From IMG/VR virus record IMGVR_UViG_2721755711_000002: 64,000 bases of DNA; one strand, written 5' to 3'. How positions within the stretch are numbered: position 1 is the stretch's first letter; each line of letters opens with the position of its first letter. Shown in pieces: positions 1 to 64,000 of this stretch. The position numbers and the translations under genes were made by a program. The notes beneath the pieces are model-generated. The model saw only the letters and a list, made by a program, of their open reading frames with translations. It did no database searches and was not told where the DNA came from. Origin of the DNA: a virus. Lineage: Duplodnaviria > Heunggongvirae > Uroviricota > Caudoviricetes.

Positions 1-47
1 AACGGGTCGTGATGCGGCCCGTTTGTGTTTTTAAAGGAAAGTCAATT

Positions 48-1076
48 ATGGGGTTATTTACCACGCGTCAGTTGCTCGGCTACACCGAGCAGAAAGTGAA
101 ATTCCGTGCGCTGTTTCTGGAGCTGTTTTTTCGTCGTACGGTCACTTTCCATACTCAGGAAGTGATGCTGGATAAAATCACCGGAAAAACACCGGTTGCG
201 GCATATGTGTCTCCGGTTGTGTCAGGTAAGGTACTGCGCAGTCGTGGTGGTGAAACCCGCGTGTTACGCCCCGGCTATGTTAAACCAAAACACCGGCTGG
301 ATTATCAGCAGGCGGTGGAGCGTCTTCCGGGGGAAGATCCGGCCCGTCTTAATGACCCGGCCTACCGTCGCCTGCGTATTCTGACTGACAACCTGAAACA
401 GGAAGAGCAGGCGATTGTGCAGGTGGAAGAAATGCAGGCGGTCAGCGCTGTTCTGCAGGGTAAGTACACCATGAGCGGTGAACAGTTTGAGACGGTGGAA
501 GTGGATTTTGGACGTTCTGCCGCCAATAACATTACGCAGGCAGGGGGACGCGAATGGTCAAAACAGAATGCTGACACCTTTGATCCGACGCATGATCTGG
601 ATGCGTACTGCGATTTTGCTTCCGGTACCATCAATATTGCGATTATGGACGGTACTGTCTGGCGTATGCTGAACGGTTTTAAGCTGTTTCGTGAAAAACT
701 GGATACCCGCCGTGGCTCAAAATCTGAACTGGAAACCGCGCTGAAAGATCTGGGTTCCGTGGTTTCTTTTAAAGGTTATTACGGTGATCTGGCCATCATG
801 GTGGCGAAAACAACGTATGTTGATGAAAACGGGGATGAGCAGCGTTATCTGCCGGAAGGCACACTGATTCTTGGAAACACTCAGGTGGAGGGTGTCCGTT
901 GTTATGGCGCAATCCAGGATAACCAGGCGCTGAGTGAAGGGATCACCTCTGCAATTCGTTATCCGAAACACTGGTTAGAGGTGGGGGACCCGGGGTGCGA
1001 ATATACCATGACGCAGTCTGCGCCGTTGATGGTGTTGCCGGATCCGGACGCGTTTGTGGTGGTTCAGGTGAAATAA
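48..1076 (+). CDS. E: Major capsid protein, lambda gpE family
   Basis: Strong similarity to lambda E (PGYVKPKH, DPAYRR, QVEEMQAVSAVL-GKYTM, KEKLDTRRGS-SELETA, IQSAPLM); start at ATG 48 (M14 of ORF 9..1076) with RBS aaaggaaa. Confidence 0.85.
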   Translation: MGLFTTRQLLGYTEQKVKFRALFLELFFRRTVTFHTQEVMLDKITGKTPVAAYVSPVVSGKVLRSRGGETRVLRPGYVKPKHRLDYQQAVERLPGEDPARLNDPAYRRLRILTDNLKQEEQAIVQVEEMQAVSAVLQGKYTMSGEQFETVEVDFGRSAANNITQAGGREWSKQNADTFDPTHDLDAYCDFASGTINIAIMDGTVWRMLNGFKLFREKLDTRRGSKSELETALKDLGSVVSFKGYYGDLAIMVAKTTYVDENGDEQRYLPEGTLILGNTQVEGVRCYGAIQDNQALSEGITSAIRYPKHWLEVGDPGCEYTMTQSAPLMVLPDPDAFVVVQVK

Positions 1077-1081
1077 GGTCA

Positions 1082-1103
1082 GGCGGGATATTCCCGCCTT
1101 TTT
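1082..1103 (+). terminator. Intrinsic terminator-like hairpin after capsid gene
   Basis: 7-bp GC stem ggcggga/tcccgcc, 3-nt loop, then TTTTT. Confidence 0.5.
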
Positions 1104-1126
1104 CTTTATCGCACAGGAGAGATGTG

Positions 1127-1513
1127 ATGACAAAAGAAGAAATAACAGCGCGTCTTCAGGAGCTGGCGGCAGTACTCGGGCGCGATGCCGATATTTCAGG
1201 CTCTAAAGCTGATCTTGAACAGCGCCTGGCGGAATGGGAAGAGGAGGCCGCCGGATTCGATGGGGAAGGGACAGAACAGGATGATGTGCATGATGAACAG
1301 CGTGATGCATCCGGAGGGGATGCCAGTAATGAGATGTATTCTGAGCGGGGACTCGTTCGGGTGCGCATGCTGAAAACGGCACATATGCCGTCCCGTGATG
1401 CGGTGACGGGCAAAATGTTGATGTTCGCCCTGGCCTCCAGTGTTGTGCTGGTTAATGAAGCCACAGTTCCTGCGTTGCTGGCGGACGGTCTGGCAGAAAA
1501 AATCCGGGAGTGA
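1127..1513 (+). CDS. DNA-packaging/head completion protein, lambda FI-like
   Basis: N-terminus MTKEEITARL...DLEQRLAE resembles lambda FI; RBS aggaga 1115-1120; position after E. Confidence 0.6.
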   Translation: MTKEEITARLQELAAVLGRDADISGSKADLEQRLAEWEEEAAGFDGEGTEQDDVHDEQRDASGGDASNEMYSERGLVRVRMLKTAHMPSRDAVTGKMLMFALASSVVLVNEATVPALLADGLAEKIRE

Positions 1514-1917
1514 TGATGTCCGATAATCTGTTCGATCAGGCCATGAGTGATGCGGATGACATCATCCTGGATACGATGGGGACGGAAATCAGCATATATC
1601 CGGGCGGCACGGAAAGAAAAATCCGTGCTGTTTTTGATGCCCCGGCAGATAACACCGGGATGAACACTGGCAGCGGCGAAATTCGTGATACTGCACCGGT
1701 GTTATTTACCCGGAGCGCATGGGTTGCCGGACTGAAAAAATATGACAGGGTCATGATCCACGGCGAACCCTACCAGGTGGTCGATCCTGGCTGGGATGAG
1801 TCAGGCACTGCGGGTCATGGTGTGATTACCATTACTCTTGCGCGGGGAGAACCCGGAAGAAGTACACCCGCCGCCCCTGTCCGACCGAGTAAACGTTATG
1901 ACAGTCAGAGAGCATGA
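1513..1917 (+). CDS. Head-tail joining protein, lambda FII-like
   Basis: DNLFD...MGT...IR-VFD...LF-R pattern as in lambda FII; start overlaps FI stop (ATG at 1513 or 1516). Confidence 0.6.
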   Translation: MMSDNLFDQAMSDADDIILDTMGTEISIYPGGTERKIRAVFDAPADNTGMNTGSGEIRDTAPVLFTRSAWVAGLKKYDRVMIHGEPYQVVDPGWDESGTAGHGVITITLARGEPGRSTPAAPVRPSKRYDSQRA

Positions 1918-2620
1918 ACGAAGCACTGTCCGGCAGCGACGGCTGGCACGAAACCTCGTCGTCGATATTGACGAGGATGATGTGCTGAAAATTATCGCTA
2001 AACTGGGTGGTTCAAAAAGCCAGATCCGTAAAGCCTGGGGCGTGGCGCTGAAAAGAGCCGCGTCCGCACTGCGGATGAAGGCCATGGCAGAGTTTAAAAA
2101 ACAGGTTGCGCCACGCAGCCAGAAAATGATCAAAAAACGTGTCCTGAATGCTTTTATCATTCGTCGAAATGGCGATGAGTTTGATGAGGTAAAGGTGTGG
2201 TTCGGCCTGAACGCCATCAAAGTGCGTGATCTGCGCGGACGCATCAGTGGGGGGCGACGCGGTGAACGCCATCAGCTGCGTGATGAACGGGGGCGTTTTG
2301 CACCGGCTTCCCGTCGCAGGAAAGCGCCGGAGATACGTTTTAAGCCCGCCGGGGAGGCAATACCGGTCACCACCTGGTCAGGTGACGAGGCTTTTGTTAA
2401 TGAGTTTGAGTCTGAAAACCGGCGCGGACGCATTTCACGACGTAAGACGGTACTGGTCCGGCAGGCATCCGGACGACGAAGGGTGCGCGAAGCGGAAATT
2501 GATATTTATGAAGCCATGCTGAACCGTATAGAGGATTTTGTTTTCCCTGATGCGGAAGCACTGATCCTGAAAAATTTTGAGCATGAACTGAAATTCCGGG
2601 TATTTAAGGGGATGGAATGA
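1898..2620 (+). CDS. Putative tail completion / head-tail adaptor protein (lambda Z or P2 R position)
   Basis: Position between FII-like and baseplate genes; basic protein; internal start at M21 of ORF 1838..2620. Confidence 0.35.
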   Translation: MTVREHERSTVRQRRLARNLVVDIDEDDVLKIIAKLGGSKSQIRKAWGVALKRAASALRMKAMAEFKKQVAPRSQKMIKKRVLNAFIIRRNGDEFDEVKVWFGLNAIKVRDLRGRISGGRRGERHQLRDERGRFAPASRRRKAPEIRFKPAGEAIPVTTWSGDEAFVNEFESENRRGRISRRKTVLVRQASGRRRVREAEIDIYEAMLNRIEDFVFPDAEALILKNFEHELKFRVFKGME

Positions 2621-3183
2621 TGGAACCATTGATGATGGGAACCTGGCATCAGGCAGTGATTGACAGTCTGAAACAAATTCCCTGGGTGGAAGATGCCGAT
2701 GAGTACCCGGAAAAAGTGACGCAACTGGTGACGCCTGCCGTGTTTGTGGATGTACCCGGCTGGGACAAGGCTCAGTTTGCCGACGGGCAGACACGGGTCA
2801 CGCTGAAATGCGATCTGTTTGTGGTGACTGATCGGGCCGGAAAGACGGAAAACGTGCCAAAACCGCAGATATTTGCCCGCTGTCTGGCAATGGATTTATC
2901 TGACTGGATTGATGGAGCCACGTTCGGGCTGGATAACGTTGATCCGGCGGTTTTTATTGATGCTGAGGTGGATACCTTCGACCGACTGCTGGACGACTAC
3001 ATCGTTTTCCGTGTCTCTTTTGAACAGGACATTCCGGTCGGCGAAGATCCGTTTGCGGCTCCGGCAGGTGTGCCGTTACAGGAAGTCTGGCTGGGTAAAG
3101 TACCGGAAACCGGTAAAAAGCATGTGCAGGATTATCGTCTTATCTGGAAAGCGGAGGGCACCGGCGATGAGTCTGGCGGATGA
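2617..3183 (+). CDS. Putative tail completion protein (lambda U or P2 S position)
   Basis: ATGA overlap with upstream gene; position immediately before gpV-like gene. Confidence 0.35.
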   Translation: MMEPLMMGTWHQAVIDSLKQIPWVEDADEYPEKVTQLVTPAVFVDVPGWDKAQFADGQTRVTLKCDLFVVTDRAGKTENVPKPQIFARCLAMDLSDWIDGATFGLDNVDPAVFIDAEVDTFDRLLDDYIVFRVSFEQDIPVGEDPFAAPAGVPLQEVWLGKVPETGKKHVQDYRLIWKAEGTGDESGG

Positions 3184-3790
3184 AGTGGCAGAGTTACGCC
3201 GCAGGGTGGCGGACATGATCCGTCGCGGCGTGGTGGAAGAGGTGATCCCGGGTAACCCGGTGATGGTTCGGGTGGATATCGGAGATGTGCTTTCGCCGCC
3301 GTTGCCCTGGATTCAGATGCAGTCCGGGCGTTACATGCAGGTCAGTAATTACCCGGCACCAGGAGATGCGGTCACGGTGATATCGGAGGCGGGCGATCTG
3401 CGTAACGGTCGTGTGTATCCAGGGGCGAATATTGACGCCATTCCTGTACCGGCGGGCAGTGAACACGAGCATGTTATTTTGTTTGATACCGGAACGGAAA
3501 TCCGTTACGACCGTAAAGCCAATGCCCTGTCCATCACGCTGGCTGAAGGCGGCAGCTATAAAATCACCGGCAGGGGAACGCTGGACGGTCCGGTGGAAAT
3601 CACGGATACCCTGACTGTGCAGGGAGAAACGAAGATTAATGCCGATACGCAGGTTCTGGGCAATATCGGTGCCTCACAGGAGATCACCGATAAAACCGGC
3701 AGCATGAGTAAAATTCGCGAAATTTATAATACTCATGATCACCCTGGCGACAGCGGGGGAACCACCCGTAAACCTAACCAGGAAATGTGA
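3167..3790 (+). CDS. Baseplate spike/assembly protein, P2 gpV-like
   Basis: C-terminal HDHPGDSGGTTRKP motif typical of P2 gpV; start at M99 of ORF 2873..3790. Confidence 0.8.
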   Translation: MSLADEVAELRRRVADMIRRGVVEEVIPGNPVMVRVDIGDVLSPPLPWIQMQSGRYMQVSNYPAPGDAVTVISEAGDLRNGRVYPGANIDAIPVPAGSEHEHVILFDTGTEIRYDRKANALSITLAEGGSYKITGRGTLDGPVEITDTLTVQGETKINADTQVLGNIGASQEITDKTGSMSKIREIYNTHDHPGDSGGTTRKPNQEM

Positions 3791-3812
3791 ACGCCGCACC
3801 GGCGTTTTTTTT
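3791..3812 (+). terminator. Intrinsic terminator-like hairpin between V-like and W-like genes (possible attenuator)
   Basis: acgccg-cac-cggcgt stem-loop followed by 8 T. Confidence 0.5.
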
Positions 3813-3824
3813 CGGAAAAATTTC

Positions 3825-4181
3825 ATGATTGGTATTGATTCCGCCACCGGCAGATATCTGCACGGTAACGAACATCTGCGTCAGTCCGTCACCGATATTT
3901 TGTCAACACCAGTCGGCAGCCGGGTACTTCTCAGGGAATACGGCAGCAGGCTGTTCAGTCTGCTTGATAACCCGCAGGATGATTTCACACGGGTGAGGAT
4001 TGTCCGTGAGACGGTTACCGCTCTTGAACGCTGGGAACCGAGACTGACGATCCGCCGTGTGGAGGTGAGCTTCGGCGGTGAGGGAAATGTCATGTTGACG
4101 CTTTTGGGCGTGAATAACGAAACACAGGAAACAATTCGTCTGGAGGAAATCAGAATTGACAACGTCTCAGGCCATTATTGA
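3825..4181 (+). CDS. Baseplate wedge protein, P2 gpW / gp25-like
   Basis: ILSTPVGSRVLLREYGS...WEPRL matches P2 W pattern; start at M31 of ORF 3735..4181. Confidence 0.75.
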   Translation: MIGIDSATGRYLHGNEHLRQSVTDILSTPVGSRVLLREYGSRLFSLLDNPQDDFTRVRIVRETVTALERWEPRLTIRRVEVSFGGEGNVMLTLLGVNNETQETIRLEEIRIDNVSGHY

Positions 4182-5070
4182 TTTGTCCGCGATACCTGTA
4201 CCGGATGCGGTGGAGGTGCCGGACACCGCTGTGCTGGTCACTCAGATAGTGGCGAAATATCAGGAACTGGACACGTTGTTTTCGGCCCTGGTGGAATCAG
4301 ATCCGGCGTATAAATGGGCGGAGGCGCTTGCTTTTCGGGTGGCGCTGATGCGCCAGCAGGTCAATGATGCAGTCCGGGCTGTACTGCTTGCCAGTGCCCG
4401 CAGGAACGATCTGGATCAGATTGGTGCGAATTTTCAGGTGCAACGTCTGGTGATTACTCCGGCAGATGACAGCACTATCCCGCCCACACCGGCGGTGTAT
4501 GAAGGGGATGATGCCTTTCGTGAGCGTATTCAGTTGTCGTGGGCGCGACTCAGTACAGCCGGTGCGAAAAATGCTTACCATTATTTTGCACAGAGTGCTG
4601 ATCCTGATGTGCTGGATGTGAAAGCCTACGGGCCGGAAACGCATTCACAGGAAGGGCGTGTTTTTCTTTATGTGTTATCGCGAACCGGAAACGGTACGGC
4701 ATCGCAACCCCTGCTGGATAAGGTGGCAGCGTCAGTCAATGATGATGAAATTCGACCTCTGACGGATTTTGTCAGTGTCCGTGCGGCAGAAATTATTCCC
4801 TACGATGTGGTTGCAGATATTCATATTCCCTACGGGCTGGATGGTGAACTGGTGATGAAAAATGCCCGTCAGGCGCTGCAGACATACACTGACAGTGTTC
4901 ACCGGATTGGTTCTGTGGCGTCCTGCTCCGGTATGGACGGAGCCCTGCATCAGACGGGGGTGATTACGGTGGCACTGAAATCGCCGGCCAGTGATATTGT
5001 TCCGGCGATGGGACAGGCTCCATGGTGTCGCTCAGTCACACTGAACAAGGTGGAGGCAACCGATGAATGA
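4156..5070 (+). CDS. Baseplate assembly protein, P2 gpJ-like
   Basis: IIDL...P-P-VVE, GANF...L-ITPADDSTIPPTPAV as in P2 J; apparent TTG start at 4156 with RBS ggagg. Confidence 0.8.
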   Translation: MTTSQAIIDLSAIPVPDAVEVPDTAVLVTQIVAKYQELDTLFSALVESDPAYKWAEALAFRVALMRQQVNDAVRAVLLASARRNDLDQIGANFQVQRLVITPADDSTIPPTPAVYEGDDAFRERIQLSWARLSTAGAKNAYHYFAQSADPDVLDVKAYGPETHSQEGRVFLYVLSRTGNGTASQPLLDKVAASVNDDEIRPLTDFVSVRAAEIIPYDVVADIHIPYGLDGELVMKNARQALQTYTDSVHRIGSVASCSGMDGALHQTGVITVALKSPASDIVPAMGQAPWCRSVTLNKVEATDE

Positions 5071-5644
5071 CATCATCAGAAGCATACTTCCTGTCAGCGC
5101 CAGCCGGGCAGAGCGGGTGGTGGACAGTACCGCCGGTGATATGCTGGCGGAAATCGCGGTCTGTCTGATCCGCTATGTAAAAAATCCCGATTTATGTCCG
5201 ACGGAATTGCTGCCATGGCTGGCCTGGGAAATGTCGGTGGACACCTGGAATGAACACTGGACGGAGGCGGAAAAAAGAGCGGCGATAAAACGTGCCGCTT
5301 ATATCCATCGTCACCGGGGAACAAAAGCCGCCCTGAACGAATCACTGACAGACAGCCCGTTCCGGTCACAGATTGTGGAGTGGTATGAGCAGACGCCACC
5401 AGGTGAACCCTATACCTTCCGGTTGAATGTGGAGCAGAAGGATTTACCGGTACAGATGAATGACTATCAGGATCTGAAGCATGCGGTGCTCCGTGCCAAA
5501 AATCTGCGCAGCTGGTTCAGTGTTCATCTTTACGGAAACAGCAGGGGGCGTGTTTTTGGTTACGGTTATGTGATGGCAACAGAAAAAGTCAGTGGTATCA
5601 GTGCTGATGATACCCGGGGTATCCGGGATGAGTGGGTGGAGTGA
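5063..5644 (+). CDS. Baseplate/tail protein, P2 gpI-like
   Basis: LLPWLAWE-SVD-W...W-E...KR pattern as in P2 I; ATGA-type overlap with J. Confidence 0.75.
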   Translation: MNDIIRSILPVSASRAERVVDSTAGDMLAEIAVCLIRYVKNPDLCPTELLPWLAWEMSVDTWNEHWTEAEKRAAIKRAAYIHRHRGTKAALNESLTDSPFRSQIVEWYEQTPPGEPYTFRLNVEQKDLPVQMNDYQDLKHAVLRAKNLRSWFSVHLYGNSRGRVFGYGYVMATEKVSGISADDTRGIRDEWVE

Positions 5645-5653
5645 GTTGTGGGT

Positions 5654-6880
5654 ATGCATGGACTAGTTTTGACAACAGCCGGGGCAGCCGAAATTGAAGC
5701 TGCATATCATGCCGGTGAGGTGGTGACCATCAGTCAGGTGATGATTGGTGACGGGGGCGGGAAAACACTGCCCTCAACGCCGGATGAGATGGCGGCGATG
5801 GTCATGTTGTGTGGTGAGTTTGGTCGGGAGCCCTTTTCAGGCGGCGTGGTGGACGAAGGTTTTATCAGCGGGGATATTGTCATTGACTGTCAGTCATACC
5901 CGGGTAAGACCCTGCGCGAGCTGGGAATGGTGAGTCATCGTGGTACGCTGATTGCGTATGGTCGTTATCCGGATACGTATTTACCGGCACAGACGGATTC
6001 CGTTATCAAGGAGGTGATACTGACACTGGTTCTTGCGCTTACACATACACAGAGTGTAACGCTGAATGTTGATCCGCACAGGGCGATTATCACGCAGGAG
6101 GCCGGAGATAAACGATATCTGCGTATCAGTGAAAATCTTGCTGATGTGAAAGACAGGGATGAGGCTGTTGAAAACCTCGGATTAAAACCTACGGTGGACA
6201 AGGCAAAAAATGCCGTTCAGCGTGATGGCGACACCATGACAGGAAAGCTGACGCTGCCCCAGACCTCCGGATTTGGTGTTAACACTGACAATGCCCTGGG
6301 CGGTAACTCAATTGCTCTCGGAGATAACGATACCGGTATAAAGCAAAACGGCGACGGCATTCTGGATGTTTATGCGAATGGTCAGCATGTATTTCGTTTT
6401 CAGAATGGCGTGGCGATGGCGTTAAAAAATATTCAGGCCGGAAATGGCAGAATGTTTACGCTATCCAGTTCTGACAGTTCCACGAAGAACGTAGGGTTTA
6501 ATTTATGGGGCAATCCATCCAGACCTGTAGTTGCAGAACTTGGTGATGATTCCGGCTGGCATTTCTACAGTCAGAGAAATACAGACGGTAGCGTCACATT
6601 CGCTGTAAACGGACAGATGACCCCATCAAACTACGCAAATTTTGATGCCCGCTATCAGACAAAAACAGGTGGCGTGCAGAATTTTCAGTACACCAGTGAG
6701 GTGTTTTACAACCCGGGAGGGAACGAACTCAGCTGGACGTTCCGCGCACCGTCTGGTTGTACCCTGTCCGGTATTCTGGTTCAGGATACCGGCAGAAACT
6801 CTGCGGATAATATCGGTGGTGTGTATTACAAACAGGCCCAGATTTATATAAATGGCGCATGGCGCTCAGTATCAGGTTAA
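5654..6880 (+). CDS. Tail fibre protein, P2 gpH-like N-terminus with P1/Mu-type C-terminal domain
   Basis: N-terminus VLTTAGAAEIEAA...MIGDGGG like P2 H; C-terminal TDNALGGNSIALGDNDTGIKQNGDGILDVYANGQ domain; last ~66 aa unique. Confidence 0.8.
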   Translation: MHGLVLTTAGAAEIEAAYHAGEVVTISQVMIGDGGGKTLPSTPDEMAAMVMLCGEFGREPFSGGVVDEGFISGDIVIDCQSYPGKTLRELGMVSHRGTLIAYGRYPDTYLPAQTDSVIKEVILTLVLALTHTQSVTLNVDPHRAIITQEAGDKRYLRISENLADVKDRDEAVENLGLKPTVDKAKNAVQRDGDTMTGKLTLPQTSGFGVNTDNALGGNSIALGDNDTGIKQNGDGILDVYANGQHVFRFQNGVAMALKNIQAGNGRMFTLSSSDSSTKNVGFNLWGNPSRPVVAELGDDSGWHFYSQRNTDGSVTFAVNGQMTPSNYANFDARYQTKTGGVQNFQYTSEVFYNPGGNELSWTFRAPSGCTLSGILVQDTGRNSADNIGGVYYKQAQIYINGAWRSVSG

Positions 6881-6893
6881 TTAAGGAAAAATA

Positions 6894-7421
6894 ATGGAAC
6901 TCGTAAACGTTACGCGTTACTACCCTGAAGACATGCCTTATGGTGAAGGCATTCAGTATTTCCGTAGTGAAGACGGGCAGGATTTTTATGAATCACTGGA
7001 TAAATTCACGAAGAAATACAAGCTGTGCACGCATCCTGAAACCGGCGTTATTTATTCAATGGCGGAAGACGTATCCCGGCTTTATCCGGCAGGTTTTACC
7101 ATTGTGGAAGTGGATGAACTGCCGGAAGGTTTTGGCATTGAAGCCAGCTGGTATTACAAAGACGGAGAAGTGCTGCCGGTGCCTGTTGATTACTCGCGAC
7201 TGGCAGAAAAAAAACGCCAGAGCCTGCTGAATGAAGCAAAGGACATCACCTCCGACTGGAAAACCGAGCTGGAGCTGGGCACCATCAGCGATGATGACAA
7301 AGCCCGTCTTACGCAATGGATGGCATATATCAAAGCGGTAAAGGCGCTGGATTTAAGTCAGGTCAGTGATGAATCATCTTATAATGCCATTGAGTGGCCA
7401 GTACCTCCACAGAACATCTGA
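6894..7421 (+). CDS. Tail fibre assembly protein (Tfa / P2 gpG-like)
   Basis: 175 aa directly downstream of fibre gene; C-terminal ...SYNAIEWPVPP shared with the second tfa at 14669..15217. Confidence 0.75.
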   Translation: MELVNVTRYYPEDMPYGEGIQYFRSEDGQDFYESLDKFTKKYKLCTHPETGVIYSMAEDVSRLYPAGFTIVEVDELPEGFGIEASWYYKDGEVLPVPVDYSRLAEKKRQSLLNEAKDITSDWKTELELGTISDDDKARLTQWMAYIKAVKALDLSQVSDESSYNAIEWPVPPQNI

Positions 7422-7440
7422 AAAAGAAGTTAATCAACAG

Positions 7441-7465
7441 ACCGCCTTTAAGGGCGGTTTTTTTA
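7441..7465 (+). terminator. Intrinsic terminator between tfa and sheath gene
   Basis: accgcc/ggcggt stem followed by 7 T; sheath RBS immediately downstream. Confidence 0.55.
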
Positions 7466-7477
7466 TGGGAGAAATGT

Positions 7478-8953
7478 ATGTCCGGACTACATGGTGTGGA
7501 AACCATTGAACTGACGACAGGCACGGTGGCCGTGCAGACCGTCTCCACGGCAGTGATTGGCCTCGTGGGGACAGCGCCGGACGCCTCCGGCGGTGTGTGT
7601 GCTTCCGGTACTGCCGGATCATGGTTGTTGAGTTCCGCGCTGGATTTTACAGCGAAAAAAGCCGGGCGGTCCGGCAATGAGATTTCAGTTGTGGCCAACG
7701 GAAGCACGCAGCAAAACGCAGAGACAACCGCGGCTCTGGAGGGAAACACCCTGACAATCACACTGGGCACAGATGAACATGGTGAGACGAATGCCACAGC
7801 GTCACGTGTGAAGGAGGTTGTGAATGCGCTGGAGGATTCACCGGTGATGGCCGATACCAGCATGCTGAATGCAGATTCTGTCGGGGAAGGAGTGGTATCT
7901 CCCTTTACCCTGACGTTGTCCGGCGGTGAGGATGAGGCATTTCCGGTTAATACGCCGGTGGTGGTGGCGGGGGCACTCACGCAGGCCGGAAAGCTGGGGG
8001 CTTCCGGAACGCTGTATCCTGCCCTGCGCGATATTTTTGACCAGACCGGTGCGCTGGTGATTGTGGTACGCGCGGAAAGCAAACCGAAAGCGAAGGAGAC
8101 CGAACAGCGTGCTGCAGTGATTAAGGCCATGGAGGCGCTGACGTGGAGTAAAGGCGTAACGGGCTACCAGCCGCGTATTCTTGTCGCCACCGGCTACAGC
8201 GAGGATGATGGTGTGGCAAAGGCGCTGGAAACGTATGCCGCGAAACTGCGGGCTGTTGCCTATATTGACTCCCCATCAATGGCAACGCCGCAGGATGTGG
8301 TTCAGCGCCGGACGTTATTTGGTGGGCGTGTTGAACTGCTTCGTCCGCGTGTGTCGGTGACGGATGACAGCGGACAAACAGTGTTTCGCCCGTATTCGGC
8401 ACGCGCAGCCGGACTACGTGCCCGTATTGATTATGAAAAAGGATGGTGGTGGTCCAAATCAAATCAGGACGTGATGAATATCACCGGTCTTGAGCAGGCG
8501 GATACATTTATTCTCGGGGAGCAGAACTGCACGGCAAACCTGCTGAACATGGAAAACATCTCCACCATTATTCGTCATGACGGTTTTAAACACTGGGGTA
8601 ACCGCCTGTGTACATCTCACAGCCAGTTGCGCTTTGAGTCCGTGCGCCGTACAGCTGATGTGATTGAAGACAGTGTTCAGGAATCCATGTTGCCTTATGT
8701 TGACCGTCCGATTGATCGGGATGTAGCGGACGATATTCTCGGCAGTATTAATGCCTACATGCGCCAGCTTAAAAATCTGGGCGCGATCCACGGTGGTAGC
8801 GCATGGCTGAACGACGAACTGAATACAGCAGAAACCCTGGCTGCCGGGCAGTTGTATATCGACTATGACTTCGGGCCGAAGTCACCACTGGAACGCCTGA
8901 CGCTGCGGACAATGATCAACAATAAACTGGCACGGGAGGAACTGACAGTATGA
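7478..8953 (+). CDS. Tail sheath protein (P2 FI-like)
   Basis: 491 aa, position before tube gene; start at M29 of ORF 7394..8953 with RBS gggaga. Confidence 0.8.
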   Translation: MSGLHGVETIELTTGTVAVQTVSTAVIGLVGTAPDASGGVCASGTAGSWLLSSALDFTAKKAGRSGNEISVVANGSTQQNAETTAALEGNTLTITLGTDEHGETNATASRVKEVVNALEDSPVMADTSMLNADSVGEGVVSPFTLTLSGGEDEAFPVNTPVVVAGALTQAGKLGASGTLYPALRDIFDQTGALVIVVRAESKPKAKETEQRAAVIKAMEALTWSKGVTGYQPRILVATGYSEDDGVAKALETYAAKLRAVAYIDSPSMATPQDVVQRRTLFGGRVELLRPRVSVTDDSGQTVFRPYSARAAGLRARIDYEKGWWWSKSNQDVMNITGLEQADTFILGEQNCTANLLNMENISTIIRHDGFKHWGNRLCTSHSQLRFESVRRTADVIEDSVQESMLPYVDRPIDRDVADDILGSINAYMRQLKNLGAIHGGSAWLNDELNTAETLAAGQLYIDYDFGPKSPLERLTLRTMINNKLAREELTV

Positions 8954-9468
8954 TGTCATGCGAGAAAAAACTGCTACGGGCATGGGCGCTCTTTCTGCCG
9001 GGTGGTATTCGCCTTCAGGGGGCACATGAGTACACGCCTCCGGCCATCAATATCACGAAGGTGGATATCAAAACCGGTGCGATGGATGCGCCGGTGTCAG
9101 TGGATGACGGTATGGAGGCGCTGACCTGCTCGTTTAAAATTTACGGATACGACGTGGCCATACTGACTCTGCTGGGATTGCAGGCAGGGATTTATTCGCC
9201 AGAAATTGTTGTCCGTCAGGCGTATCAGGTGGGCGGTGCAACAAGCGGTCTGGTGGAAACCCTTCAGGGAATGATCACCAGTATCACGCCGGATGCGCGT
9301 CCGTCCACCTCGCAGGCAGAAGCAGCGGTGTCGGTGGAAATGTCACTGAGTTATTACCGCCAGGCTGTCGATGGACTGGAGACCATCTGCATTATTCCGG
9401 AGCAGTTTGTACGGCGCATTAACGGTGTGAATGTGCTGTCGGATCTGAAAAAAATTATCCGGGTGTGA
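8950..9468 (+). CDS. Tail tube protein (P2 FII-like)
   Basis: 172 aa; ATGA overlap with sheath stop; PVSVDDGMEAL pattern like P2 FII. Confidence 0.75.
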   Translation: MMSCEKKLLRAWALFLPGGIRLQGAHEYTPPAINITKVDIKTGAMDAPVSVDDGMEALTCSFKIYGYDVAILTLLGLQAGIYSPEIVVRQAYQVGGATSGLVETLQGMITSITPDARPSTSQAEAAVSVEMSLSYYRQAVDGLETICIIPEQFVRRINGVNVLSDLKKIIRV

Positions 9469-9487
9469 TCTGGAGAAGTGGTCATTC

Positions 9488-9514
9488 AGGCGGTTCAGGC
9501 CGCCTTTTCTTTTT
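9488..9514 (+). terminator. Intrinsic terminator-like hairpin between tube and chaperone genes
   Basis: aggcgg-ttcagg-ccgcct hairpin followed by TTTTCTTTTT. Confidence 0.5.
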
Positions 9515-9528
9515 AAGAGGAAATCAAT

Positions 9529-9831
9529 ATGCCAGAGATAAACAGTATTCCCTGCAGCAGCGTGGAGATTGTGTTATCCGTGCCGTATGTCACTGCGTCA
9601 GGTCAGACAATCTCGCATGTCACCATGCGTGCACCCACCGTCCGCGATCGTCTGTTACATCGCCGGAGTACCAAGCCGGAAGCAGAAGCCGATCTGGATA
9701 TGATAGCCGGCCTGTGCGGAATGGATGCGGCGGACATGATGAATATGGAAGCGTGTGATTACCTGTCCCTGGAGCGGCAGTTTAATGTTTTTTTGCTGCC
9801 GCCGGTCAGGCGGAAGAAGACAGCATCCTGA
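9529..9831 (+). CDS. Tail assembly chaperone (P2 gpE-like), zero-frame product
   Basis: 100 aa between tube and tape measure; contains slippery heptamer near 3' end. Confidence 0.65.
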   Translation: MPEINSIPCSSVEIVLSVPYVTASGQTISHVTMRAPTVRDRLLHRRSTKPEAEADLDMIAGLCGMDAADMMNMEACDYLSLERQFNVFLLPPVRRKKTAS

Positions 9832-18588: not shown

Positions 18589-19335
18589 TTATTTTGCCTG
18601 TTTCATTTTTTCCACCCTCTCAAGCATTCTTTTTACATTTGATGGAGGATAGTTAAATTCATCGCCGTCTCCAAAAGAAATTTTTATAGGCTTCATTTTC
18701 ATAACCAATTCTTTCAGAACCGCTTTACCAATTTCAGTTTTTGGTACTATAAAACCATTTCCATACAAGCATGATTTATAAGTTTTATAATATTCACCAT
18801 TAATCAAAATTGGTGGATACTCTAATGGCCCATCAATTTGCACTGAATTATCGCAAAATCCATTGCCTTTAGATTTTGAAGCAATAAAAATAGCTATTGT
18901 CCCATCATCGCCATACATCAGGAATCTATTTTTACTAACACCTTCCAGTGGAGGTAATATTATCAGTGCACCATCAATATACCATTCAGCGTAATTCTTT
19001 GATTCATTGATTATGTTCTCATTAATTTCATTTAAAGATGAATATTCCCTGAATGCATTAGAATACCATTGTCGAACACATGATTCTGTTTTGCACTTCT
19101 CTCTTTCATTCCACAAGTCTGAAACAATTTTTCTAAAAGCTTTCTTATCAGCGCTCTCTAACTTTACTTTTTGATATAAAGAATTTAATTTATCATCAAG
19201 TTCAGATAATTCACTGTTGCTGCAAATTAACTTTTCAGAATATGATTTAGCTTTCGAGCAATCAAAAGATACCGCATTCGCAGTTCCGATTTGTAATAAA
19301 AAAGCAAACACTACAAATAATTTAAACTTAATCAT
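18589..19335 (-). CDS. Secreted protein with N-terminal DUF1311 / LprI-like domain (cargo gene)
   Basis: Signal peptide MIKFKLFVVFAFLLQIGTANA; FDCSKAKSYSEKLICSNSELSELDDKLNSLY pattern; AT-rich; RBS aggag. Confidence 0.55.
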   Translation of the reverse strand: MIKFKLFVVFAFLLQIGTANAVSFDCSKAKSYSEKLICSNSELSELDDKLNSLYQKVKLESADKKAFRKIVSDLWNEREKCKTESCVRQWYSNAFREYSSLNEINENIINESKNYAEWYIDGALIILPPLEGVSKNRFLMYGDDGTIAIFIASKSKGNGFCDNSVQIDGPLEYPPILINGEYYKTYKSCLYGNGFIVPKTEIGKAVLKELVMKMKPIKISFGDGDEFNYPPSNVKRMLERVEKMKQAK

Positions 19336-19667
19336 CCGTAATCTCCTTAAAAACAGGAGATTAAATTTTACCCATTCTTAATGTCCGTTCAAGTTCATAC
19401 TTTACAACCGCGCCCAGTTGAGTATGATTAAGCGCATGAGGCGTCGAAACCTCTTCTCAGTGCGGTCACAACCAACCCCGTTAGTGTTGGATTTTTTATG
19501 CCTGCTATTTAGTGATGGCACAATGTGCGGTCACATCCCCGAACAATGTCGGGAGGGCGACGAATACAACACCCGAAAGGGGAATAAGTCCGCGGCCTCA
19601 CTGAGCCGTTTCGAACCTCCCGGCTCCACTCCGATAGTGGAAATTCGAAAAAATCAGTGAGGTCGTT

Positions 19668-20237: not shown

Positions 20238-20560
20238 CTGGTTCCGTTAAAAAACACAACATCGATGTTATAGGTGGGGTTCTCTGCCCCATCTACTTTT
20301 GAAATTGCCAGCGATGCAAAATACCCGGCATACTGTTGCTGAACCATGTTCACATAGTAGTCCGGGTAAATCTGCTGCACGATGCACTGCTGCGCTGGAA
20401 TGCCGTAATTCGCGTAAAACGGCGACTCCCCCAACCCCAGCTTTAACGTCTGAATGAGCGTCGTCAGCCAGCCGTAGGAGAAATCACCGTTGGTGTCAGA
20501 TTCTACTGCAACCCATTTTTTGTTGCCGTTCGCGTCGTTGACGCGGCCCCATGTTCTCAT
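20213..20560 (-). CDS. Hypothetical protein, possibly gp25/W-like baseplate wedge
   Basis: ~115 aa at the position expected for W between spike and J; weak motif support only. Confidence 0.3.
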   Translation of the reverse strand: MRTWGRVNDANGNKKWVAVESDTNGDFSYGWLTTLIQTLKLGLGESPFYANYGIPAQQCIVQQIYPDYYVNMVQQQYAGYFASLAISKVDGAENPTYNIDVVFFNGTSYRTQVPV

Positions 20561-20741: not shown

Positions 20742-20769
20742 AGCCCCGACTGTTTGCCCAGTCGGGGCT
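20742..20769 (-). terminator. Intrinsic terminator-like hairpin downstream of spike gene
   Basis: 9-bp stem agccccgac/gtcggggct; U-run on - strand. Confidence 0.5.
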
Positions 20770-41771: not shown

Positions 41772-41773
41772 GC

Positions 41774-45112: not shown

Positions 45113-45189
45113 TGGAGAGCGGGTGACGGGAATCGAACCCGCATCATCAGCCTGGAAAGCTGAGGTAATAGCCATTATACGATACCCGC
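45113..45189 (-). tRNA. tRNA-Gly(UCC)-like gene, possibly degenerate
   Basis: GCGGGTATCGTATAATGGCTATTACCTCAGCTTTCCAGGCTGATGATGCGGGTTCGATTCCCGTCACCCGC...; resembles glyT as recalled but with an A7-C66 mismatch and TCTCCA instead of TCCA at the 3' end. Confidence 0.5.
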
Positions 45190-45407: not shown

Positions 45408-46454
45408 TTAAAAATCTTTCGTTATTTCTCTGACCGTCTGATTAAAACGTTCCTCTTCCAGTTCCACGCCAATCGCCCTGCGTCCCAGCGACAGTGCCGC
45501 TTTTATTGTCGACCCCGACCCCATAAAAAAATCTGCGACCAAATCGCCAGGACGGCTGCTGGCAGTAATTATCTGACGCAACATATCCGCCGGTTTTTCA
45601 CAGGGATGTTTGCCCGGATAATACTGCACGGGCTTGTGCGTCCAGACATCCGTATAAGGAACGACAGCCGATACGGAAAAATAACGCCGCAGTGATTTGT
45701 ATTCCTCCAGCAGGCTGGCATATTGCCGGTTCAGTTCGCTGTATGTGCTGACCAGCTGGTGGTGTGGCTGCTCCAGTTCACCGCGCTGGTGTTTTTCTGC
45801 CACCACACGTGCAAACAGCGCCTGCAGTTTACTGTAATCGGCCTCATTCGGTAACTGCCACTGACTGGTACCAAACCAGTGCGAAGCCATGTTTTTCTTT
45901 CCGGTGGCTTCCGCTATCTGTTTTGACGTTATTCCCAGTGATTCACGCGCATCACGAAAGTAAGAAATCAGCGGGGCCATGACGTGCTGTTTTAGCTCAC
46001 GCCCCTTTGCCGCATAGCCGTCATTTTTGGGCTGGTATGGCCCCTGATAATGTTCAGCAAACAGAATGCGTTCTGTTGCCGGAAAATACGCCCGCAGGCT
46101 TTCCTTGTTGCACCCGTTCCAGCGCCCGAACGGCTTCGCCCAGATAATGTGGTTCAGCACATTAAAGCGTTCACGCATCATGATTTCGATATCAGATGCC
46201 AGGCGATGACCACAGAACAGGTAGAGACTTCCGGCAGGTTTCAGTACCCGCCAGAACTGCGCCAGACACTGAGCCAGCCATTTCAGGTAATCATCGTCGC
46301 CCTTCCACTGGTTATCCCAGCCCTCGGGCTTCACTTTAAAGTATGGCGGGTCTGTGACTATCAAATCGACAGAGTTTTCCGGTAAGGTCCGGATAAATTC
46401 CAGGCAATCAGCGTTGATTAACTCACAACTGGATATTTTTACAGTATTAGCCAT
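45408..46454 (-). CDS. Orphan DNA methyltransferase (amino-MTase, DPPY type)
   Basis: IVTDPPYF catalytic motif near N-terminus and FMGSGST SAM-binding motif near C-terminus; no adjacent restriction gene. Confidence 0.8.
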   Translation of the reverse strand: MANTVKISSCELINADCLEFIRTLPENSVDLIVTDPPYFKVKPEGWDNQWKGDDDYLKWLAQCLAQFWRVLKPAGSLYLFCGHRLASDIEIMMRERFNVLNHIIWAKPFGRWNGCNKESLRAYFPATERILFAEHYQGPYQPKNDGYAAKGRELKQHVMAPLISYFRDARESLGITSKQIAEATGKKNMASHWFGTSQWQLPNEADYSKLQALFARVVAEKHQRGELEQPHHQLVSTYSELNRQYASLLEEYKSLRRYFSVSAVVPYTDVWTHKPVQYYPGKHPCEKPADMLRQIITASSRPGDLVADFFMGSGSTIKAALSLGRRAIGVELEEERFNQTVREITKDF

Positions 46455-47014: not shown

Positions 47015-47710
47015 TTAATCTACTTTTGCAATACTTTGCTTTGAAAATGCCGCCTTTTGTTCCGAACGCGTTCTCATTACCAACAATAAAGCCTCACTAT
47101 CCAGCTGGTGGAAAATGTGTTTCATTGCAACCCAGTGACCAGTAAATGTTTTGGACCAGTTTTTAGTTGTCACTCCCGCCAGTAATGCCAGCTCCTGGTA
47201 TTCATAACCTTCCCCGCCAAAAAGTTCTGCTTTTACTGCCTGCGCCGCCAGCCAGATTAATTTTTTCAGGCGTTCCCGTGTTTTCTCTGCAATTTTCCTG
47301 TTGCCAGAATGAGCCTTAAACTCTTCCCATGCCCAGCGGGTTATGGTGACCTGATACTCCCAGCAAATATTTCCGCTGTAACACCACAACAACCAGGTTT
47401 TATGAGGTTCTTCAAGAGACAGAACAGCCCGTCGCCATGAGGATGTCGAAAACTCAACCTGACTTACCAGAGGAATTGACGTCCCCTTCGCCAGCGATTG
47501 TTTCCCCGGGATTGGTGGATTATCCCGCGTGATCATTTTTCCAGTCACTTCATCGCGGTACCGGATTTTTTTACGCCTGTAACGCCCTGTATCGAACATG
47601 GCATTCTCCTGCCAGGCTTCAAGCTGACCTTTTGTTGCCCCACTCAAATCGGCGGTGGCGATAATGAGCTGCTCACGAACAAACTGTAAATACTGGTTAT
47701 TCATGCGCAC
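47015..47710 (-). CDS. Putative late-gene antiterminator (Q-like)
   Basis: 231 aa directly downstream of rusA and upstream of terminator and lysis region, as in lambdoid phages. Confidence 0.5.
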   Translation of the reverse strand: MRMNNQYLQFVREQLIIATADLSGATKGQLEAWQENAMFDTGRYRRKKIRYRDEVTGKMITRDNPPIPGKQSLAKGTSIPLVSQVEFSTSSWRRAVLSLEEPHKTWLLWCYSGNICWEYQVTITRWAWEEFKAHSGNRKIAEKTRERLKKLIWLAAQAVKAELFGGEGYEYQELALLAGVTTKNWSKTFTGHWVAMKHIFHQLDSEALLLVMRTRSEQKAAFSKQSIAKVD

Positions 47711-56255: not shown

Positions 56256-56261
56256 GTGGTG

Positions 56262-56654
56262 ATGATCTTTGTAAAACGCCTTCAGCAGGTGTTGCAGGAA
56301 TTGAATATAAACCAGTCAGAGCTGGGAAGACGTCTTGGTGTAAAACCCCAATCCGTGCAAGGTTGGTTGAAAGGCGTGATGCCAAGAATGGATAAATTGG
56401 AAAAATTAGCAGAGCTCTCACAACATCCCGTCCATTGGTTCTTTATGGAAGAAGAAACTCTCGGCGATAAGATGGCTGTATCCAGTAATGACAACCAACC
56501 GCAACTTACAGAACAACAACGAAAAATCATATCGCTTTTAGATGAGTTACCTCAAAGCGACGCAGAGCAGATCATTCGGGATATGGAGCAAAAACGCGAT
56601 TTCTATAAACGCAAACTTGAAGAGTTACTGCGGCAGAAAAACAAAACTGCCTGA
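56262..56654 (+). CDS. Prophage repressor (CI-like, HTH; no peptidase domain)
   Basis: HTH NQSELGRRLGVKPQSVQGW; divergent from cro-like gene. Confidence 0.6.
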   Translation: MIFVKRLQQVLQELNINQSELGRRLGVKPQSVQGWLKGVMPRMDKLEKLAELSQHPVHWFFMEEETLGDKMAVSSNDNQPQLTEQQRKIISLLDELPQSDAEQIIRDMEQKRDFYKRKLEELLRQKNKTA

Positions 56655-60122: not shown

Positions 60123-62579
60123 ATGAGCGCTGATAAAGAAGAAATTGCACTATATTACGAAGCCAAAAATGACAAAGTCAGAAAACGCCTTGGGATTAAA
60201 GGCGGTTTTTACTGGCGCACAGCAAAAAAATTATCGGTTGCAATATCACGCGGTGTTGTCGCAATGGACGATGCCGGATTTGACGAAGAGGATTTTAAAA
60301 AACCTGTTCGCGTCCATTTACCCATTGTGAATGACCTTCCTCCGGAAGGCGTGTTTGATACCGAATTCTGCAATCGATACGAAAAAGGCGGGGAAGATGG
60401 TATAACAATGGTATTTATTGAGACATCTCACTCTGCGCAGGACAAACCAGCCAGCACTGACAATACCAACGTCAACGGCGAAGACATGACGGAGATTGAG
60501 GAGAACATGCTCCTGCCGGTTTCAGGTCAGATTCTGCCTGTTCGATGGCTGGCACAGCACGGCAGCGAAAAACCGATCACACACGTTTCGCGGGACGAAC
60601 TGCGCGCATTACATAACGCACAGGATGAAAAACTTCCCGCCGTTACCGCTCTGGCCATCTCAAATAAAGCAGCGCAACTCGAACCGCTGGAAATTCGCGA
60701 TCTCCACAAACTGGTTCGTGACACGGACAAAGTTTTCCCTAATCCTGGTAATTCAGACCTGGGACTGATGACTGCTTTTTTCGAAGCATACCTGGGCGCT
60801 GACTACACCGATCGCGGTCTGCTGACAAAAGAGTGGATGAAAGGAAATCGTGTTTCACGCATTACCCGCACGGCTTCCGGTGCTAATGCCGGTGGAGGAA
60901 ACAAAACCGATCGCAATCCTAATTTAGTACACACCTTCGATACGCTGGATGTGGAGATTGCAGCGGCCACACTTCCGATGGATTTTAATATTTATGAAAT
61001 TCCGGGCAGCGTTTATCGTCGCGCAAAAGAAGTCGTCCGGAAGAAAGAAAGCCCGTTCAAAGAATGGTCCGCAGCACTTCGCGCAATCCCGGGTATCCTG
61101 GATTATTCCCGCGCCGCTATTTTTGCGCTTATCCGGAGCGCACACCCTGAATTTTATCATTACCCGGGACGCCTTCAGGGGTATATCAACGCCTACTTAA
61201 CGGAGACTGATCACGAGAACCCCAGCAAGGAAACTCTCACTGCTGCACGACATACACCGGAAAAAGATATCCTGGAAGAAGTTAACCGCGAGCTGGCTGC
61301 CGGGCAAGAAACAGAAGAAGAAAAAAATGATGAAGAAAAACCGCAACCGTCTGGCGTACTGGCAGATGAACAGGCAACGGCTGAAACAATGGAACCGGAT
61401 ACAACTGAACATCGCCAGGACACGCAATCGCTGGATACTCAGGAACAGGTAGATCCAGTTAATCAGGTGAAAGTTACCGCTGACGAAGTAAACAAAATTA
61501 TGCAGGCAGCCAATATCGGCCAGCCTGACGCCGATAAGTTGCTTGCGGCCTCTCGCGGTGAATTTGTTGCAGGGATTAGCGACCCGAATGATCCGAAATG
61601 GGTGAAGGGGATTGAAACCCGCGATTCAGTGAATCAGAACCAGCAAGAAACGGAACAGAACGACCAGAAAGCGGAACAAAACAGCCCAAATGCGTTACAA
61701 AACGAGCCAGAAACGAAACAACATGAACCAGCAGCGCAACAGGAACCGGAAAAAGCCTGCACCGTCTGCGGTCAGACCGGCAGCGGCAACTTCCCTGATT
61801 GTGGCGCGGTGATGGGCGACGCAACATACCTGGAAACATTCGATGAAGAGAATCAGGTTGAAGTTCAGGAAAATGATCCGGAGGAAATGGAAGGCGCTGA
61901 ACATCCACACAAGGAGAATGCTGGCAGCGCTCAGGACCACGCCAGCGATAATGAAACTGGCGAGGCGGCAGATCACTCAATTAAGGTGAACGGTCATCAC
62001 GAAATCACATCCACCAGCAGGACGTGTGACCATCTCATGATCGACCTCGAAACCATGGGAAAAAATCCTGATGCCCCGATTATCTCAATAGGTGCAATAT
62101 TTTTCGATCCGCAAACCGGAGATATGGGACCGGAATTTAGTAAGACTATCGATCTGGAAACTGCTGGCGGAGTCATTGATCGGGACACCATTAAATGGTG
62201 GCTGAAGCAATCACGCGAAGCGCAATCTGCCATTATGACCGATGAAATCCCGTTAGATGATGCACTGTTACAATTGCGAGAATTTATCGACGAAAACTCC
62301 GGTGAATTTTTTGTTCAGGTCTGGGGAAATGGAGCCAACTTCGACAACACGATTTTGCGCCGTTCATACGAACGGCAGGGGATCCCCTGCCCGTGGCGTT
62401 ACTACAACGATCGCGATGTACGCACAATTCTTGAACTGGAAAAAGCCATAGACTTCGATGCCAGAACGGCTATTCCATTCGAAGGCGTACCCCACAATGC
62501 GCTGGACGATGCCCGTCACCAGGCAAAACAAGTTTCAGCTATCTGGCAAAAACTGATCCCGAGTCAGGCTGATTTTTAA
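60123..62579 (+). CDS. Large early protein, RecE-like N-terminal region with C-terminal DEDDh-type 3'-5' exonuclease-like domain
   Basis: 818 aa; C-terminal motifs [25 protein letters not shown]; N-terminal block [17 protein letters not shown]...[10 protein letters not shown] resembles RecE as recalled. Confidence 0.5.
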
Positions 62580-62643
62580 TGTTCAACCCCGGTCGTCGCC
62601 CACCAGCTATAGTGGTGGCGACCATGATTAGCGAACGACGCTC

Positions 62644-62892
62644 ATGGCAAGACTTATTCTGCTCACTGAGTGGGCAAAAGAGGAATTCAGCGATCCGGTC
62701 CCGACTCCGGGCACGTTAAGTAAATACGCTAAAGCCGGAATGATATTTCCTCTCCCCAAAAAAGTTGGAAGACACTGGCGAGTGGATCCACGAGCTCGCT
62801 TTGTCGGAATGGTAAACAAGCCGGAGGTGATCGCCACAGATCACCCTGCTTTGAAGAGGATACTGGAAGATGGCGCGCCCGCGAAAATATAA
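62644..62892 (+). CDS. xis: Excisionase (Xis-like)
   Basis: 82 aa immediately upstream of and overlapping int; LTEW...FPLP pattern like lambda Xis. Confidence 0.55.
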   Translation: MARLILLTEWAKEEFSDPVPTPGTLSKYAKAGMIFPLPKKVGRHWRVDPRARFVGMVNKPEVIATDHPALKRILEDGAPAKI

Positions 62893-64000
62893 AACCGAAG
62901 TTCCGGGACTATCTCCGTATTTTGACAAAAGAAATAACAAAGTTTACTGGCGTTACAGGCATCCCATAACAGGCAAAAATCACGGTCTCGGCAGTATTGA
63001 CCAGAAACTGGCAGAAACTATTGCAGCAGAAGCGAACAGCCGTCTTGCCAGGCAGCAAATGGAACAAATGCTCAGTCTGCAGGAGAAAATTATTAATGAT
63101 ACCGGCGGTTCATCAACCGTTTCCATTTTTCTGAATAATTACAGAAAAATTCAACAGGAAAGATATGAAAACGGAGAGATCAAACTCAACACGCTGAAAC
63201 AAAAAGCGGCCCCTCTCAGGGTATTTGATGAACGTTTTGGCACCAGACCGTTAGATGCCATAACTGTAAAAGATGTGGTATCGGTGCTGGAAGAGTACAA
63301 GGCCAGAGGACATAACAGAATGGGGCAAATTTTCAGGAAGGTACTGATCGATGTTTTCCGGGAAGCTCAGCAAACAGGCGATGTTCCGCCAGGCTTTAAC
63401 CCTGCAGAATCGGCAAAAAAACCGCAGGTGCGGATATCAAGACAGCGACTGACTTTTGATGAGTGGATGATGATTTATAACGCAGCGGAAAAGGATGGTT
63501 ACTTTTTACAGCGCGGCATGCTGCTGGCACTGATGACAGGCCAGCGCCTTTCAGATATTTGCAAAATGCAATTTTCGGATATCCGGGATGGTTATCTTCA
63601 TGTCGAACAGCAAAAAACAGGAACCCGGATTGCCATCCCTCTTGCTCTGCGTTGCAATAAATTAAATCTCACCCTGGATGATGTGGTGTCATCCTGTCGC
63701 GATTGCGTTCTTAGTCCGTGGCTATTGCACCACCATCATGCGAAAGGGACAGCCAAGCGCGGCGGGATGGTTAAGCCAGCAACGTTAACAGTTGCATTTA
63801 AAAAAGCGCGGGATTCTGTAGATTACAACTGGTGCGCTAATGGTACCCCACCCTCTTTCCATGAACAGCGATCATTGTCGGAGCGCTTGTTCAGGGAGCA
63901 AGGGATCGACACCCAAATTTTGCTGGGCCATTCGAATCAAAAAATGACCGATATTTACAACGATGCACGTGGTAAGGAGTGGAAAAAACTGGTCATTTGA
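62870..64000 (+). CDS. int: Tyrosine integrase, lambda Int family
   Basis: Strong similarity to lambda Int including C-terminal LLGHSNQKMTDIYNDARGKEWKK; stop at window end. Confidence 0.9.
   Translation: MARPRKYKTEVPGLSPYFDKRNNKVYWRYRHPITGKNHGLGSIDQKLAETIAAEANSRLARQQMEQMLSLQEKIINDTGGSSTVSIFLNNYRKIQQERYENGEIKLNTLKQKAAPLRVFDERFGTRPLDAITVKDVVSVLEEYKARGHNRMGQIFRKVLIDVFREAQQTGDVPPGFNPAESAKKPQVRISRQRLTFDEWMMIYNAAEKDGYFLQRGMLLALMTGQRLSDICKMQFSDIRDGYLHVEQQKTGTRIAIPLALRCNKLNLTLDDVVSSCRDCVLSPWLLHHHHAKGTAKRGGMVKPATLTVAFKKARDSVDYNWCANGTPPSFHEQRSLSERLFREQGIDTQILLGHSNQKMTDIYNDARGKEWKKLVI

Follow-up and report, generated by a model that had tools for sequence, protein, structure and literature searches.

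Two common types of lambdoid prophage and an apparent head-on joint between their cut side tail fibre genes

How do two different phage virion modules come to face one another with no host DNA between them? The question is posed by IMG/VR record IMGVR_UViG_2721755711_000002, a 64,000-nucleotide (nt) stretch of Caudoviricetes DNA (hereafter the window), in which an earlier reading, the original prediction, described two such modules arranged convergently and proposed either that two prophages abut tail-to-tail or that a rearrangement fused them. Pfam and PHROG matches bear out both modules at the predicted positions, and host DNA is indeed absent between them, as we found no host gene, tRNA or attachment (att)-like sequence there. 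The entire window is prophage DNA, with no host gene in its 64 kilobases (kb), no Ns and tRNA-Gly at 45117-45189 as its sole tRNA, and the sign of the GC skew flips near 14 kb, in agreement with the switch of coding strand at that point. We are highly confident that two separate lambdoid prophages, each ordinary in itself, contribute pieces to the window, and that the breakpoint at which they are joined is a secondary one and not an att site. Very probably the first, prophage A (1-14012, + strand), is the late half of a prophage with a lambda-type head and a P2-type tail, and the second, prophage B (14013-64000), is a complete lambdoid myovirus prophage, ompW-type and Rac-SA53/phiP27-like; the left flank of A and both outer att sites lie beyond the window limits. 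Each virion module comes from a common prophage type, and together they form no new kind of element; both prophage types are already known, as are clusters of prophages that lack host DNA and mosaic tail fibres. What is unusual is only the head-on joint of cut genes, and this joint may not be physical.

The joint lies within two side tail fibre genes. Prophage A had been assigned to 1-13355, and its content there stands (E, FI, FII and a P2-type tail), but it does not end at that point, running on instead into a cut side tail fibre gene at 13380-14015 (+ strand), in which 211 codons are followed by a TAA stop from B sequence (Pfam phage_tail_N, 9.5e-57). Likewise, the virion set of B at 14669-37840 is as predicted, but B itself extends further at both ends, starting at 14013 with the matching cut gene and reaching an integrase gene at 62870-64000. 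The cut gene of B (13980-14645, - strand; Pfam phage_tail_N, 3.4e-62) consists of 211 native codons plus 10 that read into A antisense. Nucleotides 1-633 of the A fibre gene directly meet the reverse complement of nucleotides 1-633 of the B fibre gene, with zero bases between them and at most one shared T at the joint. At codons 208-211, A ends with GCG AAT CGC CTG and B, head-on to it, with GCG AAT CGT TTA; the native continuation after codon 211 (TCA GAA in A-type genes, TCA GAG in B-type genes) is gone from both. The only neighbours of the joint are gpD on the A side and Tfa on the B side.

That homologous fibre genes face each other, as had been predicted, is borne out by a 633-nt imperfect inverted repeat without a spacer, far beyond chance expectation. 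Its arms contain 104 mismatches and are 84% complementary overall and 92% complementary over the inner 425 nt, and in total they make up 1.27 kb. The resulting near-palindrome occupies 13373-14652 with its centre at the joint, between 14012 and 14013, where a 35-bp perfect stem adjoins an 8-nt asymmetric centre, CCTGTAAA. These adjacent inverted arms are able to form a hairpin, as in a palindromic SbcCD substrate, and the predicted free energy of the single-strand hairpin is -618 kcal/mol. The break falls directly after mismatches at positions 630, 631 and 633, which form the only mismatch cluster in the last 39 bases and are preceded by 35 matched nt. As far as the joint, the B arm shares 99.8% identity with a prophage in E. 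coli F2_407_2_2, and the A arm is 93-99% identical to E. coli PapRG-04-4, with 99% identity over the first 200 nt and a natural mosaic beyond.

Intact relatives show what is missing. In relatives of A, the side fibre gene runs to 474-490 codons, DUF4376 and small cargo come next, and the att site at ompW' or zinT follows. In relatives of B with an identical Tfa, a 474-amino-acid (aa) fibre and DUF4376 are present in ten of ten cases, followed by host DNA or by the integrase of another prophage. Missing at the joint, for A and B alike, are the distal half of the fibre gene, the DUF4376 chaperone gene and the att site at this end. This contradicts the proposal that the prophages simply abut tail-to-tail, because both fibre genes are cut at codon 211 and their distal parts are gone, whereas relatives keep the 474-aa fibre, DUF4376, cargo and att site. 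An att boundary was accordingly rejected as an account of the joint, the terminal genes being cut and the att sequence gone. The broader possibility that nothing was lost, with intact prophages abutting at att sites or with the whole acting as a single functional phage or as a satellite-helper unit that has two virion modules, has in our view a close to negligible probability. Prophages commonly lie in tandem or nested with no intervening host DNA (PMC8112680; also the locus of one B relative), but here each terminal gene breaks off at codon 211 of 474, the chaperone genes, att repeats and intergenic DNA are all gone, and each module is a complete, independent head-and-tail set that is found alone in many genomes.

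We tentatively favour, with confidence a little short of even, the view that the joint arose by hairpin-guided deletion between two convergent adjacent prophages. Two prophages would first have come to lie convergent and adjacent, for example through integration of one into or beside the fibre end of the other. Their fibre-plus-chaperone cassettes, each of about 2 kb, would then have made a long inverted repeat with a short spacer, as expected of convergent copies given that A-type and B-type cassettes in relatives are 91.5% identical over 2 kb. This repeat could have folded into a hairpin during replication, bringing mirror positions together, and synthesis could have slipped across, or bypassed, the base of the stem. 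Such a slip would have removed the distal fibre halves, the DUF4376 genes, the inner att sites and the spacer, and it would leave cut points that are mirror images of one another just outside the mismatch cluster. Random illegitimate joining would give mirror-image breaks by coincidence at only about 1 in 1,000, so the process responsible must be able to put the break at the same position in both genes. In addition, the other genes of both modules are intact, with almost no indels relative to relatives that are 98-99.8% identical, which points to a recent event and to good sequence quality and which we count in favour of a deletion. Glickman and Ripley, in 1984, and Weston-Hafer and Berg, in 1989, are both said to have described deletions in E. 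coli whose end points lie at the base of a hairpin stem. The starting arrangement also has precedent, as clusters without host DNA, integration of one prophage into another and prophage-prophage rearrangement are documented for ompW prophages (Nakamura et al. 2021, PMC8112680).

Several observations weigh against a hairpin-guided deletion. The flanks at the joint, 92% complementary and including the 35-bp perfect stretch, could pair as well, so that pairing does not single out a stem base at this position. Slippage normally uses short direct repeats, and here no more than 1 nt is shared. A long palindrome is also costly in vivo, where SbcCD would be expected to cut it at each replication: SbcCD+ E. 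coli does not survive with a perfect palindrome of 460 bp, although repair allows it to tolerate one with a 20-bp interruption (PMC4245961). Finally, the joint was not found elsewhere. Megablast against 5,426 complete E. coli genomes returned no match spanning it, an exact 52-mer over the joint is absent from the GTDB species representatives, an exact 26-mer is absent from IMG/VR and from Joint Genome Institute metagenome contigs, and neither of two joint-specific proteins is on record by exact protein look-up, nor are gpD and the tape measure protein. The same complete genomes show no progenitor with A and B fibre ends within approximately 5.5 kb of one another. Relatives known so far lie at ompW and zinT for A and at ompW, the Rac site and the pphA site for B, and a convergent, adjacent pair of them has not been observed. 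A looser 17-base pattern of the joint gave chance matches only, in unrelated taxa.

The second part of the original prediction, that a rearrangement fused the two modules, fits the sequence but holds only if the joint exists in the cell, and an assembly mis-join is almost as likely. We consider an assembly or scaffolding artefact a serious candidate at rather less than an even chance. Both prophages would then carry full cassettes, and either the identical distal repeats were dropped when two contigs were joined end to end, or a contig was misoriented. A repeat boundary of this sort would place mirror-image breaks exactly at the last differing bases (630, 631 and 633), and the uniqueness of the joint among all collections searched, the expected cost of the palindrome in vivo (PMC4245961), the pristine state of all flanking genes and the lack of any standard recombination route to such a joint all count in favour of an artefact. 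The side fibre gene is, moreover, a habitual place for contigs to break. Nearly all of 120 listed homologues are annotated as partial, and a draft contig of 187 kb stops at nt 630 of a homologous gene, a coincidence that is within chance expectation; the lengths of database homologues are scattered, and codon 211 does not emerge as a recurrent cut point among the 120 listed. On the other side, contigs from a De Bruijn graph cannot hold a joint that is absent from the reads, the ends of graph contigs keep k-1 repeat bases where there are zero here, and scaffolders normally add Ns, of which the window has none. The homopolymer and indel noise of a poor long-read assembly was not seen in the window. 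A technical fold-back chimera in particular was rejected, as it would give identical arms and the arms here are two distinct natural alleles.

Homologous recombination was also considered and rejected as the source of the joint: inverted copies give collinear hybrids, direct copies give a deletion or duplication, and Holliday resolution never joins two N-terminal arms. A programmed or site-specific event, in which a recombinase or nuclease acts at a conserved boundary between anchor and shaft, for instance through a misaligned invertase or through two cuts and end joining, strikes us as improbable. Such an agent would account for the same codon position in both genes, and the joint sequence CCTGTAAAC presumably resembles the left half of a Mu gix site; by our reasoning, the observed bases would result from a 2-nt staggered exchange with GT/AT cores. 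However, the serine-invertase motif (GYxRVSxxxQ-type) is absent from all six frames of the window, relatives have no invertase gene beside these fibres, the gix-like CCTGTAAAC is made by the joint itself and absent from the intact genes, and the intact sequence lacks a 12-2-12 dyad. Neither was a second case found in the 5,426 genomes, although the fibre family reaches up to 16 copies per genome. An invertase switch was likewise rejected, there being no invertase motif and no variable cassettes in the window and the gix-like string being a product of the joint. We give similarly little credence to the more inclusive proposal that the joint is real and was made by a position-specific agent, be it a nuclease, a recombinase or structure-guided replication bypass, which would have welded the prophages into a non-excisable pair with a lateral-transduction layout.

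Comparison with known systems helps to place the joint. Prophage clusters at ompW (PMC8112680) resemble the window in their ompW-type integrase and in having two adjacent prophages with no host DNA between them, and prophage-prophage recombination with resulting chromosome inversions has been reported for them. These clusters, however, are joined at att sites or by collinear homologous exchange, whereas the joint in the window is a head-on fusion of cut genes without att. Its close inverted arms are able to fold like those of the model long palindromes of the Leach laboratory, which are SbcCD substrates, and its 8-nt asymmetric centre resembles that of an interrupted palindrome, but the Leach palindromes are engineered perfect repeats and the arms in the window are natural diverged alleles (84% overall, 92% for the inner part). 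Inverted repeats within the tail fibre genes of temperate phages are also a feature of Mu G/Gin, P1 C/Cin and e14 P/Pin. Unlike these switches, the window has neither an invertase gene nor alternative C-terminal cassettes, and its inverted copies are the constant N-terminal anchor (phage_tail_N) of two phages, whereas those of Gin/Cin/Pin are variable C-terminal parts of one.

Apart from the side fibres, the two prophages share sequence in their primary fibres. A second inverted repeat, 399 nt long at 88%, links these genes at 6284-6682 and 15379-15777, and the C-terminal end of the B fibre together with its chaperone gene (14694-16005) is 96% identical to the primary fibre cassette of a P2-type tail in PapRG-04-4. 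Sharing of this kind indicates that receptor-binding cassettes move between the two tail types.

Prophage A carries the lambda-type head genes E, FI and FII in that order. The open reading frame (ORF) for the major capsid protein E runs from 9, with an ATG at 48, to 1076 (Pfam Phage_cap_E, 8e-65), followed by FI at 995-1513 (Packaging_FI, 3.7e-15) and the head-tail attachment protein FII at 1510-1917 (Phage_attach, 2.1e-13). A P2-type contractile tail, identified by Pfam and PHROG matches, then occupies 1838-13355. It opens with a tail completion protein, phrog_1072, V, W (GPW_gp25), J (Baseplate_J) and I (Tail_P2_I), and continues with the primary fibre H (tail-collar, 5648-6880), Tfa (Caudo_TAP, 6894-7421), sheath (7394-8953), tube (8950-9468), chaperone E (TAC_7, 9529-9831), tape measure (9949-11604), U (GpU), X (tail X) and D (GPD, 12279-13355), with all of these genes on the + strand. 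The complement V-W-J-I, H with its chaperone, sheath, tube, E, T, U, X and D, which is that of a P2/phiCTX-type tail, is present entirely as intact ORFs, as are all genes of the module upstream of the side fibre. The capsid protein matches, residue for residue, one that is usually found ahead of a lambda siphovirus tail, which places the seam between head and tail directly after FII.

The original prediction was right to call a lambda-type head on a P2-type tail a mosaic, yet the combination is not unusual: at least 80% of module A is found in 69 of the 5,426 complete E. coli genomes, and part of it in 846. The mosaic is real and of a known kind, occurring in full lambdoid prophages at ompW or zinT. 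Module A has 85-92% nucleotide identity to a prophage of E. coli A10, in which the same architecture comes after Nu1, A, W, portal, protease and D and ends near zinT; an ompW remnant marks its end in E. coli STEC316 and PapRG-04-4. By analogy with A10, which has them, the A genes Nu1/A, W, B, C and D would sit to the left of base 1. Prophage A resembles the A10 and STEC316 prophages in the order E, FI, FII, tail completion, V W J I H G, sheath, tube, E, T, U, X, D and phage_tail_N side fibre, and differs from them in its side fibre, which breaks off at codon 211, and in lacking the chaperone, cargo and att site. Its tail shares 98.3-98.8% identity with the tail module that PapRG-04-4 has at ompW, making this the closest match for that half (98.5%), but the head region of PapRG-04-4 differs. 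The nearest isolates are Citrobacter phage Chris1 and Hafnia phage yong2, with a sheath protein identity of 61%, and Chris1 is, like A, lambdoid with a P2-type tail. A literature search combining 'lambda-like head' with 'P2-like tail' found nothing.

Among lambda-type prophages, we also noted that several E. coli genomes (loci L064, 1-5000, and L068, L070 and L071, approximately 1400-7100) have a cassette in place of Nu1/A/W and part of the portal gene. This cassette encodes a RepA-type helicase (AAA_25), SSB, a second Phage_cap_E capsid gene, a decoration protein and a small terminase, and locus L071 retains 241 aa of the portal as a stump. The cassette has the appearance of a capsid-forming satellite inside the head operon of a helper prophage.

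Prophage B combines a virion module collinear with those of Rac-SA53/phiP27-like phages with lambdoid lysis, Q, replication, immunity and integrase regions. Its late module is 95.7% identical to phage Rac-SA53 (KU052037) over 90% of its length and is collinear, at 98.6-99.8% identity from TerS to the N-terminus of the side fibre, with the F2_407_2_2 prophage, which lies at the Rac site. From the joint outward, the module (14669-37840, - strand) runs from Tfa to TerS: Tfa (Caudo_TAP) lies nearest the joint and is followed by the primary fibre (15220-16713), baseplate genes (Baseplate_J and hub, 16710-18546 and 20808-23459), an SLT tape measure (23463-25436), the sheath (26569-27906), the major head protein (30242-31270), a protease/scaffold gene and then a MuF-like head morphogenesis gene, the portal (33976-35415; homologous to Pfam Phage_portal_3), TerL (35431-36759) and TerS (36749-37840). 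RefSeq gives a homologue of this portal, at 20265-21701 of locus L065, the name 'anti-CBASS protein Acb1 family protein', which is probably an over-extended family name.

The remainder of B extends from 37844 to 64000. A TAGT and ParB_N gene pair (38031-39906, - strand) is followed by an M15 endolysin and two holins (41394-42494), the tRNA-Gly already mentioned (anticodon tcc), an N6/N4 DNA methylase (45408-46454) and Q (47015-47710), and the same part of the prophage holds DUF968, a replication region and YdaT. A helix-turn-helix repressor (56256-56654) and a RecE-like exonuclease (60123-62579) precede an ORF at 62644-62892 that is probably an excisionase, judging from its position, which is that of the excisionase preceding the integrase in PapRG-04-4. 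The lambda-type integrase closes the prophage. This early and integrase region matches the PapRG-04-4 prophage at 93.5% nucleotide identity; in that prophage, 45 nt separate the integrase from ompW. The two integrase genes are equal in length (1131 nt). An integrase homologous to one adjoining ompW argues that B is a complete ompW-type prophage except for its fibre end. In this respect B differs from Rac-SA53 and F2_407_2_2, whose early region and integrase are of the ttcA/Rac type, as it also does in its cut side fibre. The last base of the window, 64000, is exactly the end of the integrase stop codon, which suggests that a predicted provirus boundary set the limit of the window, with ompW and the att site just outside it.

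Other features of B concern its cargo. Beside terS, B has the TAGT and ParB_N pair where Rac-SA53 has LT-IIa toxin genes. The TAGT gene, for a TET-associated glycosyltransferase (PF20691; phrog_842, 'beta-glucosyl-HMC-alpha-glucosyltransferase'), overlaps that of the ParB_N/Srx-domain protein, between the lysis genes and terS, and the pair is also kept in the F2_407_2_2 relative. It may be DNA-modification cargo; no TET/JBP gene was seen. The tRNA-Gly gene adjoins the N6/N4 DNA methylase gene, downstream of Q. Within the baseplate region, the slot at 18589-20237 holds an LprI-like protein, named from the annotation of a relative (lysozyme-inhibitor family), and an AntA antirepressor on the opposite (+) strand, and relatives of B have other cargo there, such as an HSDR_N-domain protein.

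What the joint means for these prophages depends on whether it is physical. If it is an assembly error, it serves as a warning that side tail fibre repeats can yield false calls of fused prophages. If it is real, neither prophage would be able to excise alone, the att site at this end being gone, and both would keep their primary fibres and intact virion genes while losing an accessory side fibre. The 1.27-kb near-palindrome should then be a chronic site of SbcCD cleavage. Induced B would be expected to package in place from the terS region, via its own late genes and into A, and headful packaging of B that runs into the virion genes of A and beyond would amount to a lateral-transduction layout. 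A real joint would be a natural case of a long inverted repeat between prophages that has collapsed to a near-palindrome, leaving a fragile chromosomal site with both prophages locked in place, and it would offer a useful natural example for the study of palindrome instability and prophage domestication.

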